Position numbers and translations under genes: made by a program. Shown here one piece after another: positions 25,518 through 28,589 of a stretch of DNA of 64,000 bases (position 1 is its first letter; the number at the start of each line of letters is the position of its first letter). The notes under the pieces are model-generated. The model had not been told where the DNA came from, ran no database searches, and saw nothing but the letters and a program-made list of their open reading frames with translations. This stretch comes from an archaeon (GTDB lineage Archaea > Undinarchaeota > Undinarchaeia > Undinarchaeales > JBDRKL01), in contig JBDRKL010000004.1 in NCBI GenBank assembly GCA_043814055.1, forward strand, positions 86,246-150,245. The letters run 5' to 3'.

Positions 25518-26147
25518 ATGGCAAGGGAAACAGTTGACAAGTGGAAGAGCAAGAAATTCTTTGATGTTGTAGCCCCGCCGCTATTCAGGAACGCTGTCAT
25601 AGGGCAGACAATCGCATCAGACATTCGCAAAGTCCCGGGCCGAATAGTAATGGCCAACTACAGCACAATCATAGGCGATCCGAACTCAAGGAACAACAAG
25701 GTCAAGCTCAAGTTCAAAATCACAGGTGTCAAGGGCGAGAAGGCAGAGACAGAGTTCCTTGGTCACGCGCTTGTCCAGGACTATCAGCGCAGTTTGGCGA
25801 GGCGCAGGACGAGCAAGGTATACAAGAATCAGGTAGTCACCACAAAGGACGGAAAAAGACTTCGCGTGAAATCAATTATTGTTACAACTAGGCAGGTTAA
25901 GAAGTCAATGAAGAGCGAGCTTGGCAAGAAACTTCTTGAGTTCATGGCTGAGGATGCAAAGCAGTACAATTACAATGAATTCATCAATGACGCAGTTTCT
26001 GGCAGGATTTCAATGCGAATGAAGAAAGGGCTTTCCAAGTTCTACCCGCTCAGGCACGCAGTGGTTGAAAAGACCGAAGTTATTAAGGAAGCTGTGAAGG
26101 CTGAGCCGAAGGTTGAAGAGAAGCCTGCAGAAGAGAAGAAGGAATAG
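25518..26147 (+). CDS. rps3ae: 30S ribosomal protein S3Ae (eS1)
   Basis: DKWKSKKFFDVVAP, DYQRSLARRRTSK, TKDG, YPLR. Confidence 0.95.
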   Translation: MARETVDKWKSKKFFDVVAPPLFRNAVIGQTIASDIRKVPGRIVMANYSTIIGDPNSRNNKVKLKFKITGVKGEKAETEFLGHALVQDYQRSLARRRTSKVYKNQVVTTKDGKRLRVKSIIVTTRQVKKSMKSELGKKLLEFMAEDAKQYNYNEFINDAVSGRISMRMKKGLSKFYPLRHAVVEKTEVIKEAVKAEPKVEEKPAEEKKE

Positions 26148-26148
26148 G

Positions 26149-26160
26149 AAGCTTTATTAA
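26149..26160 (+). promoter_or_regulatory. BRE/TATA promoter for the C/D sRNA
   Basis: AAGCTTTATTAA about 25 nt upstream of the predicted sRNA 5' end. Confidence 0.6.
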
Positions 26161-26181
26161 TTCTATAAGACACCATATTAC

Positions 26182-26247
26182 TTGCAGTGAAGAAGTGAAC
26201 ACCCTCTGATACCGCCCAAAGATGATGAGTATGGTAGCTTCTGAGCA
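26182..26247 (+). ncRNA. Box C/D guide sRNA
   Basis: C GTGAAGA (26187), 12-nt guide, D' CTGA (26206), C' ATGATGA (26222), 12-nt guide, D CTGA (26241), short terminal stem. Confidence 0.85.
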
Positions 26248-26836
26248 CTCAATGATTTTTTGGTCCAGCTTTTGCGCGAGTTTTGCGAGCGGAAAAGGTG
26301 GGTGCCAGCACCCTCTGATACCGCCCAAAGATGATGAGTATGGTAGCTTCTGAGCAATCTTTTTCCTTCCAATTTATCAAAAACGTCGGACGCACAGCGT
26401 CCGAGGCCAACGCGCTTCGCGCGTCTGGAGCTTGACCAAAAACAGTGCTGCTGCTTGATGTTTTTGAAGCAGCACGTGGCCGCTCTCCGCGGCCAGGCGG
26501 AGATAGCAGTAGCTTCTGAGCAATCGTTTTCACAAACTTCTATTGAGGCTTCGCCGATGGCGAATGCCTCTGCTCTGCCTCCGCGAGCAGGCGGAGCTTC
26601 TGAGCAATCTAAACTTTTATTTTTCACAAATTTGACCGAAGGCACCCGAATGGCTTGGTAATGCCACAGCATCACCAATTTTATGTGGCATGCTCTGCCT
26701 CCGCGAGCAGGCGGAGCTTCTGAGCAATCTAAACTTTTATTTTTCACAAATTTGACCGAAGGCATCCTACTTGCTCGGTAGTCCCGCAGCATCAAAAATT
26801 TCTTGCGGGACAAAGTGCCGCCTGATTTTTCAGGCG
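26200..26836 (+). repeat. Array of hairpin cassettes separated by copies of the sRNA 3' end
   Basis: 48-bp direct repeat 26200-26247/26309-26356; AGCTTCTGAGCA recurs at 26511, 26595 and 26715; 74-bp direct repeat 26571-26644/26691-26764. Confidence 0.85.
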
Positions 26837-26840
26837 AACG

Positions 26841-26853
26841 AAAGCTTTATATA
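26841..26853 (+). promoter_or_regulatory. BRE/TATA promoter for the hairpin-array RNA
   Basis: AAAGCTTTATATA, consensus archaeal promoter with no ORF downstream. Confidence 0.7.
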
Positions 26854-26874
26854 CCCTCACGGATTACTAGATTT

Positions 26875-27190
26875 CCCCTCCGGGGGTCTGACTGTATTGG
26901 GGAGGCATTTCCAATCTCTCAGAACAAGCTTGGGTTGAGGTGGGATCTGTGAAAGCCTTCGGGCTTACATGGAATTTATCTTGACCCACTCTAAGATTGG
27001 ACTGGGTGGGGGAACGCGAAACCTTCGGGCGACGCGCAATTCAACCCGGTCCACTCTAAACTTGGATTGGGGTTGGACATGTAAAATTTTCGGATTTTAT
27101 GCGAAAGATCTCAATCCACTCTAACCTGGACCAGGTGGGAGAGCGCGAAAGTTTCGGCAGACGCGTAATTTAACTTGGTCCACTCTTCTT
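26875..27190 (+). ncRNA. Putative structured ncRNA of about 310 nt: leader plus four tandem UUCG-capped hairpins
   Basis: Units 26931-26988, 26998-27053, 27063-27118 and 27127-27182 run TGG...TTCG...CCA with linker CTCTAA; compensatory changes and G-U pairs on the + strand. Confidence 0.8.
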
Positions 27191-27227
27191 CTCAAAGTTT
27201 TTAAAGAGGCAGTCACTACACTATCTG

Positions 27228-28589
27228 ATGGACTCCATCCTTAAAGAGGTTCTCAAGCGGGCTACGCCGACCGAGGCAGAGCACAAGAAATTGGAAAGCT
27301 TTGCCCAGCAGGTTGTCAGGAAACTCAAGGCAGCCGGCTACAGGGCAGACGTAGAGGGCTCTATCGCAAAGGACACCTGGGTTTCAGGCACGCACGATGT
27401 TGATATTTTCATGTTTTTTGAGCCAGGAGTTCCAAGAAGCAAACTGGAAAAGGATGGCATAGCAGCTGGCAAGAAAATCATAAAAGGGCTCGGCGGCAGC
27501 CCAGTGATTGCGTATGCCGAGCACCCTTATGTGAAAGGTGCTATTGGGAATTTCAACCTTGATATAGTCCCCTGCTATTCAATCAAAAAGACCGAGGAGC
27601 TTCAGTCCGCGGTTGACAGGACACCGTTCCACACCGCTTACATAAAGAAAAACCTCACCAAAAAGCAGATGGGTGAGACGCGCCTGCTCAAGCAATTTAT
27701 GAAAGGCGTCGGCGTGTACAGCGCCAAGGAAAAAGTGCGCGGCTTTTCAGGTTATCTCTGCGAGCTTTTAATCCTTGAGTACAAGGACTTCATGGGCGTT
27801 GTGAGAGCTGCCAAGAACTGGAAGTACGGCACGGTCATAGACCTAGAAAAGTTCTACAAGGGCAGGGAGGCATTTAACCTGTTCAAGCACTCCCTCGTCG
27901 TGATAGACCCAATAGACAAGGACAGGAATGTTGCAGCCGCGGTTGAGAATGACAACTTTGAGCGTTTTTCATTTGCGTGCAGCGAGTTCCTCGCGAAGCC
28001 GTCTAAAAAATTCTTTTACCCTGAAAATGTTCAAGTTCTTAGCAAAGGCGAGTTGAAAAAGAAACTTGAAAAGCACGGCGAACTATTCGTGGTCAAGTTT
28101 AAGACGCCAAAACTCATAGAGGACATTCTTTATTCTCAATTGAGGCGCAGTTTGGCTTCCTTAGTTAGGGCTGTGAAGGAAGAAGATTTTGAGGTTATTG
28201 ACTCGGCGTTCCACTCCGATGAGTATTCATATTTCTTACTTGAGCTAAAAACTGCAAAGCTACCGGGGATTAAAAAGCTTGACGGCCCTCCAATCCAGAT
28301 AAGTCAGGAACACCAAAAAAAATTCACGGACAAGTACAAGAAGCAAAAGCCATGGGTGGAGAAAGGCCGCTGGTATGTTGAAGTTCCTAGGGAATATGTC
28401 CAAGCTGTAAAGTTGCTCAAGCAGTTGCTCTCAAATCCGCGGCAGATTGGGATTGGAAAATATATATCAGACAGTCTTAAGAAAGATTATAAAATCCTTT
28501 CAGGCTCAGAATTGTCTAAGGAATACAAGGAAGAATTTGCAACGTTTTTAACGCAGTACTTGGTCAAGAAGAACTCCTGGAATTGGTAA
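27228..28589 (+). CDS. cca: CCA-adding enzyme (class I tRNA nucleotidyltransferase)
   Basis: GSIAKDTW...DVDIF, YAEHPYV, SAVDRTPFH, GFSGYLCELL, DPIDKDRNVAAA. Confidence 0.97.
   Translation: MDSILKEVLKRATPTEAEHKKLESFAQQVVRKLKAAGYRADVEGSIAKDTWVSGTHDVDIFMFFEPGVPRSKLEKDGIAAGKKIIKGLGGSPVIAYAEHPYVKGAIGNFNLDIVPCYSIKKTEELQSAVDRTPFHTAYIKKNLTKKQMGETRLLKQFMKGVGVYSAKEKVRGFSGYLCELLILEYKDFMGVVRAAKNWKYGTVIDLEKFYKGREAFNLFKHSLVVIDPIDKDRNVAAAVENDNFERFSFACSEFLAKPSKKFFYPENVQVLSKGELKKKLEKHGELFVVKFKTPKLIEDILYSQLRRSLASLVRAVKEEDFEVIDSAFHSDEYSYFLLELKTAKLPGIKKLDGPPIQISQEHQKKFTDKYKKQKPWVEKGRWYVEVPREYVQAVKLLKQLLSNPRQIGIGKYISDSLKKDYKILSGSELSKEYKEEFATFLTQYLVKKNSWNW

Follow-up and report, generated by a model that had tools for sequence, protein, structure and literature searches.

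What does the gap upstream of cca, the gene for the CCA-adding enzyme, encode in this stretch of archaeal DNA? The window, 64,000 nt of contig JBDRKL010000004.1 from assembly GCA_043814055.1 (G000:C4:86246-150245 in the numbering used here), belongs to a 0.98 Mb, 82% complete genome of the order Undinarchaeales, DPANN archaea. In it, 1080 nt separate the rpS3Ae gene (25518-26147) from cca, and the last third of this gap had been read in a first-pass annotation, made from the sequence alone, as four tandem hairpins that form an undescribed non-coding RNA connected with the neighboring enzyme. We conclude that this hairpin array is a real, conserved and undescribed RNA gene of some Undinarchaeales, that it consists of tandem minihelices resembling the ends of transfer RNA (tRNA), and that it is linked to cca; its function we infer.

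The region from 26841 to 27193 comprises a B recognition element (BRE) and TATA box, a leader, and four stable hairpins on the plus strand with compensatory changes (Table 1). The first-pass annotation had located each of these parts correctly, along with the CTCTAA linkers, the pyrimidine tract and a second TATA-like box. With the helix ends numbered as in tRNA, the distance from the start of the array TATA box to G1 of unit 1 is 86 nt, and the 5´ end of the transcript is estimated to lie ~25 nt after this box. The leader, described as structured, folds into two small hairpins, but this fold was not significant alone; in related genomes, too, a small 5´ hairpin opens the array, and the A/U-rich run before the first unit ends in UU. 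After units 1-3 come CTCTAA and a further 2-3 nt, and after unit 4 the pyrimidine tract CTCTTCTTCTC, at which the transcript likely terminates; in one relative (G011), a run of seven T follows the last unit. The units had also been described as alternating in an A-B-A-B pattern. This is apt for units 2 and 4, which are 80% identical, but not for units 1 and 3, which have little common sequence and share only an uninterrupted upper stem, unit 1 as a whole being an uninterrupted hairpin with a UUCG loop.

Table 1. Features of the hairpin array and its surroundings, in window coordinates (sRNA, small RNA)
Feature	Position	Strand	Details or basis
Array promoter, BRE-like GAAAGC and TATA box TTTATATA	26840-26845 (BRE-like), 26846-26853 (TATA)	+	sequence reading
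Leader, two small hairpins	26876-26930	+	fold; z = -1.5, not significant alone
Unit 1	26931-26988	+	U-1 26931, G1 26932, C72 26987, A73 26988
Linker 1, CTCTAAGAT, like tRNA trailer + leader	26989-26997	+	trailer score in top 1.1% of 8039 intergenic CC sites
Unit 2	26998-27053	+	G1 26999, C72 27052, A73 27053
Linker 2, CTCTAAACT	27054-27062	+	trailer score in top 0.4%
Unit 3	27063-27118	+	G1 27064, C72 27117, A73 27118
Linker 3, CTCTAACC	27119-27126	+	trailer score in top 0.2%
Unit 4	27127-27182	+	G1 27128, C72 27181, A73 27182
Pyrimidine-rich trailer, likely end region of array transcript	27183-27197	+	trailer score in top 0.1%
TATA-like box of cca, TTTTTAAA	27198-27205	+	~28-30 nt before ATG (27228)
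cca, class I (archaeal) CCA-adding enzyme, 453 aa	27228-28589	+	Pfam domains
C/D box sRNA, start of rpS3Ae-cca gap	26183-26247	+	sub-threshold Rfam C/D matches (sR14, E = 0.047)

Folding and covariation both mark the array as RNA. The 336 nt from 26865 to 27200 fold at -130.6 kcal/mol, compared with -100.6 ± 4.8 kcal/mol for 100 shuffled sequences (z = -6.2), none of which folded as well. Taken singly, units 1 to 4 gave z-scores of -5.8, -3.2, -4.2 and -3.9 on the plus strand and of -1.8 to -3.25 on the minus strand, with every unit folding better on the plus strand. G.U pairs account for 57 of the 253 lower-helix pairs across 21 units from five genomes, the set on which unit counts are based throughout, and these pairs fit the plus strand only, in agreement with what had been noted for the window. 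The stems were said to vary in sequence yet keep pairing, and we observed this at both scales: 8 of 20 consensus pairs changed on both sides in the alignment of the four window units, as did 9 of 11 lower-stem pairs in an alignment of 15 units from four genomes. In the larger alignment, 90.9% of lower-stem cells were paired, compared with 74.4 ± 2.4% in 500 shuffles (none as high), and sliding the partners by 1-3 columns lowered the figure to 32-63%. The array is a real structured RNA of the plus strand, conserved and covarying. Short plus-strand open reading frames (ORFs) of 55 and 51 aa overlap it; from relative to relative, the arrays vary in length and in how many units they have, which does not suggest coding.

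Searches with covariance models identified homologous arrays in relatives, and all five arrays, that of the window included, are linked to cca. A model built from the four window units (R1) gave tandem matches among 13 genomes of the order in G003 (four matches), G007 (four) and G011 (three), another family of the order; upon reading of the loci these came to six, six and three units. Reading the cca-upstream regions of 12 order genomes added an array of two large units in G010. Of the 12 order genomes with cca, five from three families thus have an array of two to six units immediately ahead of the gene, and no array was seen in the cca-upstream regions of the other seven. A second model (R2), for which we used 15 units and set aside the six largest or branched, was run on the 17 genomes of the phylum and again detected these five arrays. 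Neither model gave a further copy elsewhere in the window's own genome. Weak single matches in G008 and G004 (R1) and in G004 and G012 (R2) were set aside as stretches that read by eye as protein-coding, without an ORF call, and R2 matches in G002 and G014 are not arrays; these are the four weak R2 matches inspected out of six, the other two being G012:C12 (E = 0.068) and G011:C155 (E = 0.08). A blastn search with 460 nt against 40 relatives gave no match, since the sequence is too diverged and covariance models are needed.

Beyond the order, a scan of two large public collections for the pattern TCCACTNTAAN{2,4}TGGAN{4,8}TGGGAGA uncovered no new lineage. It returned 10 stretches from genome contigs, of which four, in records labeled Undinarchaeota or "archaeon", match the arrays already found, and the other six (five bacterial, one from Haladaptatus) have no R1 match. 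Only L050 among the seven stretches from metagenome contigs has an R1 match, which equals that of L041 in length and score. By eye, no such array was found upstream of cca in 40 archaeal genomes outside the order, drawn from 76 with a cca match, mostly from the upper part of the list and not as a random sample; the stretch free of long ORFs ahead of cca exceeds 150 nt in just three of the 40.

The array also matches no described RNA family, consistent with the earlier suggestion of an undescribed structured RNA. Rfam 15 at gathering thresholds detected three tRNAs only in the window, all elsewhere, and a search of 26100-27400 at E ≤ 10 gave over the array only a chance microRNA match (18.5 bits versus a cut-off of 72). 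For the arrays of the four relatives, at E ≤ 1, there were only C/D-like matches, outside the arrays. The units are not tRNAs, with no RF00005 match over the arrays, no ARAGORN call and loops of 4 nt in most units; nor are the four window units C/D box sRNAs, as they lack the C (RUGAUGA) and D (CUGA) boxes. RNase P RNA is excluded, being located elsewhere in the genome; RNA of the signal recognition particle was not searched separately.

Within the order, arrays are present in families f1 and f4 and in one of three f3 genomes, and were not found in f2 or f5. The array-bearing genomes form no clade in a tree of Cca proteins, indicating that the RNA was lost or moved several times. Such patchiness would suit evolutionary debris, that is, a remnant, duplicated in tandem and surviving by chance, either of a tRNA gene or of hairpin cassettes inserted in this lineage at the ends of tRNA and sRNA genes, with copying of the end of the target. 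Repeated sRNA tails do lie directly upstream (26200-26836), and the tail and trailer of unit 4 have an 11-nt run in common with those of tRNA-Val(CAC) in the same genome. However, both helix strands covary within and between genomes, which the copying of one tail cannot yield, and the same locus and promoter are kept in three families, in which the Cca proteins of the other array-bearing families are only 51-55% identical to that of the window. There are also no dispersed copies according to R1 and R2, so debris seems an improbable origin. The same two observations, matches at this locus only and covariation of both strands, led us to reject a dispersed hairpin repeat or cassette of the genome.

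The link to cca, which had rested on the adjacency of the two in one genome, was strengthened by the comparison. The array abuts the cca promoter in all five cases, in the same orientation and with nothing in between, while its upstream neighbor has changed in three of the five. The insertions, between a C/D box sRNA and the array, are an orphan ORF of 180 aa (G003 and G007) and a gene for a 23S ribosomal RNA (rRNA)-intervening-sequence protein (G010). The latter (PF05635, 3.4e-33; L030 3299-3688, plus strand) is on the opposite strand and is flanked by inverted GGCGTTGGGCGTT-like repeats.

Array and cca nevertheless appear to be transcribed separately, as the first-pass annotation had proposed. 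In all five arrays the first unit is preceded, at a distance of 48-86 nt, by a TATA-like box, a presumptive promoter judging by its sequence, and another such box starts 27-30 nt before the cca start codon in all 12 order genomes examined, seven of which lack an array. The latter spacing implies a promoter dedicated to cca and an mRNA with essentially no leader, and separate boxes make the array an RNA gene of its own and not a cca leader. This bears on whether the array might act in cis: transcription from a strong upstream promoter would read through into cca, whose mRNA would owe its level and its 5´ end to the tRNA-like units, working as an insulator or as cleavage "punctuation". The immediate proximity and shared orientation in five of five cases would be in line with such a role, as would the fact that a clear oligo-T run follows the array in G011 only, and tandem tRNA-like punctuation is known from t-elements (PMC4326828). 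Against it stand the fixed cca box, present even where there is no array, and the number of units, since punctuation would need one element and the arrays have two to six. We consider a cis role to have little chance of being correct.

Comparison of the 21 units showed which parts are constrained. The preceding base (-1) is U in 20 of them, as part of UU in 17; the helix starts with GGA in 20 and ends in YCC, with G1-C72 in all 21; the base after the helix (73) is A in 19 and G in two; and the trailer opens with CU in 20. Counted from G1, the helix has 10-14 layers in 19 units (median 12), with outliers of 17 and 20. Its top is usually UGGG paired with YUUA. Above it lies a purine-rich junction, G(U)GGGAGA, found in most units, whose AGA is opposite GAA or an A-rich strand and which bears one, two or three variable hairpins, mostly with UUCG loops. 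Conservation is limited to the two helix ends and this one junction element, and the positions between them covary freely. An alternative pairing of GGUGGG with UCCACU was dropped, as the GG before UGGG is not consistently there.

This consensus led to a revised description of the unit. The closure by TGG and CCA reported for the window is better described as U-1, G1-G2 ... C71-C72 and A73 followed by a tRNA-like trailer, with no encoded CCA tail, and the supposed GGA internal loop belongs to the conserved G(U)GGGAGA element, the GGG of which is mostly paired with YUU. The inner stem with a UUCG cap holds for the window's genome but is not conserved, as relatives have one to three upper hairpins.

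Archaeal H/ACA RNAs, too, can be built of one to three hairpins in which an internal loop separates the lower from the upper stem, and the window genome encodes Nop10 while Rfam annotates no H/ACA RNA in the window. A multi-hairpin pseudouridylation guide is nonetheless very improbable here. The ANA trinucleotide follows the helix in 0 of 21 units (A-C-U in 20, A/G-C-C in one), the internal loops are small, largely paired and conserved between units, not guide-like, and no kink-turn (K-turn) or K-loop was seen by eye in the UUCG-capped upper stems, for which no formal motif search was made. The absence of H/ACA hallmarks had been noted before, as had that of hallmarks of a CRISPR (clustered regularly interspaced short palindromic repeats) array, and we likewise rejected the latter given units that differ in sequence and are joined by linkers of 8-9 nt.

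We compared the unit ends with those of tRNA genes. In the window genome, 17 of 39 usable tRNA genes have no encoded CCA, and their trailers start with YU in 16 of 17 cases, with CU in nine and with CUC in six; across the 39 genes, U is found at -1 in 27 and A73 in 25. A profile of the 17 trailers scored the four unit trailers at 4.0-8.3 bits, within the top 0.1-1.1% of 8039 intergenic CC sites and inside the leave-one-out range of the tRNAs themselves. Trailers of G003 tRNA genes start with CU in 11 of 27 cases. The 21 units have the acceptor-like helix end and the ~12-layer helix of tRNA-like elements. The order also encodes the machinery: RNase P RNA is present in 10 of 13 genomes (141 bits in G000) and tRNase Z is above the cut-off in 12 of 13 (in the window genome at G000:C10:30672-31559). 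Where found, in 12 of 13, cca is a single copy, and the window's Cca matches tRNA_NucTransf2 (1.3e-39), CAA_C (3e-38) and NTP_transf_2 (5.8e-9). The resemblance of the unit flanks to pre-tRNA flanks lends support to the earlier suggestion that the transcript may be cut in its linkers.

We favor, with a probability of roughly 0.4, a reading in which the array is a polycistronic precursor of mimics of the tRNA acceptor arm that would be cut out by RNase P and tRNase Z, given CCA by the neighboring enzyme, and act as pseudo-substrates or regulators. Each unit would copy both ends of a pre-tRNA, namely a leader ending in U(U), a G1-G2-A3/U70-C71-C72 helix, an unpaired A73 and a CU-rich trailer, on a ~12-layer helix that equals the length of stacked acceptor and T stems. 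The array could thus be likened to a polycistronic tRNA operon with the tRNA bodies swapped for hairpins, in which RNase P would cut before G1 and tRNase Z after A73, and the linkers would be thrown away. With GG at the start of every unit and CCA at its end, the added CCA could slip back onto G1-G2, and units might hold or repeatedly engage the enzyme. As pseudo-substrates, they may buffer or report the capacity of the tRNA 3´-end machinery. Transcription, cleavage, CCA addition and a physiological role are all predictions of this reading.

Published work on related processing backs the chemistry of these steps. In one study (PMC4477674), CCA-adding enzymes are described as accepting acceptor-stem-like hairpins, mini- and microhelices with a preference for a discriminator A, a preference shared by the class I enzyme of A. 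fulgidus, and a 5´ GG as permitting refolding and a second CCA addition. In Haloferax, RNase P and tRNase Z cleave tRNA-like t-elements in vivo (PMC4326828).

Several observations weigh against processing as tRNA mimics. General tRNA end-processing enzymes can dispense with the invariant G2, A3-U70 and G(U)GGGAGA, which makes an additional or different partner with sequence specificity likely, be the units excised or not. None of the 31 G003 tRNAs starts with GGA, so the units copy no particular tRNA there. The helix top is unlike T stems, with no T-loop, and GGG stands at positions 51-53 in only 11 of 40 tRNAs, which left the UGGG element unsupported as a T-stem mimic. U-1 can pair with A73, in which case the end may be blunt, without a free discriminator. 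Nearby copies of the C/D box sRNA bear a similar 3´ flank (AATCTAAAC), and the trailer motif may therefore mark the ends of stable-RNA genes generally rather than tRNase Z sites. The patchy distribution implies several losses or transfers and thus a dispensable role; the RNA is probably accessory. Finally, the linkage to cca goes beyond bare adjacency, yet it comes from about three lineages and a short spacer.

Part of this counter-evidence would be accounted for by a transcript that stays intact as a multivalent scaffold or sponge with two to six protein sites, each made of the conserved UGGA/UCCA helix end and the G(U)GGGAGA/purine junction, for a partner that need not be the CCA enzyme. The conserved sequence, GGA in 20 of 21 units and G(U)GGGAGA in most, lies exactly where none is required by tRNA enzymes, the remaining stem covaries freely, and the number of copies varies from two to six and the upper parts from one to three hairpins. 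Tandem G.A/A.G pairs next to G.U pairs are a typical protein or metal site, and the junction can form such pairs, as judged by eye from the folds. The same junction does not fit a K-turn, also by eye, as there is no 3-nt bulge next to the G.A pairs, and no candidate protein was identified. An uncut scaffold also leaves the tRNA-like flanks and linkers and the ~12-layer helix unexplained. We regard it as a serious contender, if on balance a doubtful one.

The more specific version of the tRNA-mimic reading, that the units are dedicated natural pseudo-substrates of the CCA enzyme, strikes us as unlikely. An excised minihelix, with GG at its start and UCC-A at its end, would have the same end restored by each added CCA as this slips back onto G1-G2, so that it could engage the enzyme over and over or allow CCA repeats to grow. 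The supply of free enzyme to real tRNAs would then be set by the array, as a genome-encoded sponge or sensor.

How does the array relate to known systems? Its closest relatives in kind are tRNA-like elements such as t-elements and mascRNA, from which it differs in being tandem, stand-alone and without a cloverleaf. Plant mitochondria also have t-elements, and mascRNA and menRNA are tRNA mimics to which CCA or CCACCA is added after cleavage by RNase P and RNase Z. The array flanks and helix length fit the pattern of the t-elements found upstream of 5S rRNA in Haloferax volcanii (PMC4326828), but these are single, lie inside larger precursors and free a neighboring RNA, whereas the array has two to six units as its own gene, linkers of only 8-12 nt and no cloverleaf or T-loop. 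The likeness that we propose to mascRNA and menRNA (from MALAT1 and NEAT1) is that of tRNA mimics with the same processing and CCA addition; those RNAs (PMC9777231 and PMC11693755) are mammalian, single, cloverleaf-like and derived from long non-coding RNAs, unlike the archaeal, tandem, hairpin-like units beside a cca gene. Armless, hairpin-like mitochondrial tRNAs of nematodes and mites are ~50-60 nt long, with an acceptor helix, one stem and two connector bulges, and are still CCA substrates (PMC4477674). They keep a 7-nt anticodon loop and decode, whereas the array units, with 4-nt UUCG loops or branching into two or three hairpins, cannot.

Outside tRNA mimicry, we compared the type III toxin-antitoxin (ToxI-like) arrays and the CsrB and RsmZ sponges, which have in common with the array a promoter, tandem structured repeats and multivalent binding. 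ToxI-like arrays are tandem RNA repeats directly upstream of the gene of an enzyme that processes and binds them. In the Undinarchaeales, however, the downstream gene is a single housekeeping CCA enzyme with its own promoter and not a toxin, and no similarity in sequence or structure is apparent. Multi-hairpin archaeal H/ACA sRNAs are like the array in their one to three tandem hairpins with lower stem, loop and upper stem, and unlike it in that the array lacks an ACA box and a K-turn, and its loops are conserved and do not differ as guides would.

No description of the array RNA was found in literature on Undinarchaeota tRNA, archaeal CCA-adding enzymes, minihelices and tRNA-like RNA, and the main text of the founding Undinarchaeota paper, without its supplementary tRNA tables, contains neither "non-coding" nor "CCA" (PMC7414124). 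If the units do enter tRNA end-processing, the array would be the first archaeal gene with mimics of tRNA ends as its sole product, beside the enzyme that would act on them. It would then offer a natural system in which to ask how RNase P, tRNase Z and class I CCA enzymes read bare minihelices, whether RNA decoys control CCA addition, and what mimics do in reduced DPANN cells. Should the units be pseudo-substrates, they would constitute the first RNA regulator of tRNA 3´-end maturation and a living minihelix acceptor outside translation. Even if they are not processed as tRNA mimics, a conserved, covarying and promoter-driven multi-hairpin RNA in a phylum without described non-coding RNAs is a target for RNA work.

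The first two thirds of the gap between rpS3Ae and cca consist of a C/D box sRNA and repeated modules, each closing with a copy of the sRNA tail. The sRNA is kept across the order, lying either in the rpS3Ae-cca gap or a short way upstream of cca (L012:175-250 and the cca-upstream regions of L025, L027, L029, L031, L032 and L033). Its D´ guide can pair over 10 bases with GGGUGUUCAC in the region of the 23S rRNA gene (G000:C12, ~9590), a target that we take to be the A-loop (helix 92), where the fifth-base rule would presumably place the methyl group on the equivalent of U2552. No clear rRNA match was found for the D guide, and the guides have no complementarity to the array. From 26200 to 26836, five copies of the sRNA tail GTAGCTTCTGAGCAATC alternate with differing hairpin modules, there is also a 120-nt direct repeat (26571-26688 and 26691-26808, 89% identical), and the last module stops right at the array promoter.

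Other cca-upstream regions also had distinct contents. In G005 (L028, oriented ~1160-1470), ~300 nt without an obvious gene, unrelated to the array, open with a long GC-rich palindrome-like segment of CAGC/GCTG repeats. An unrelated archaeon, G021 (L112), has directly upstream of cca, in ~390 nt, two sequences resembling intron-bearing tRNA genes with encoded CCA, neither of which was called by ARAGORN.

We also noted features of the tRNA genes and their processing in the order. CCA is encoded in 22 of 39 tRNA genes in the window genome versus 4 of 31 in G003 (loci L054-L083), a large shift within one order in the dependence on CCA addition. A second RNase P RNA-like match, below threshold (62 bits versus a cut-off of 84), is present at G001:C34:3118-3398 besides the full one. 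ARAGORN also placed a tRNA gene at G000:C12:115016-115203, with a 95-nt intron and an acceptor that starts with GGAUCC, as in many units of the relatives; the anticodon in its label, "tRNA-Pyl (CUA)", is probably an artefact of where the intron was placed.

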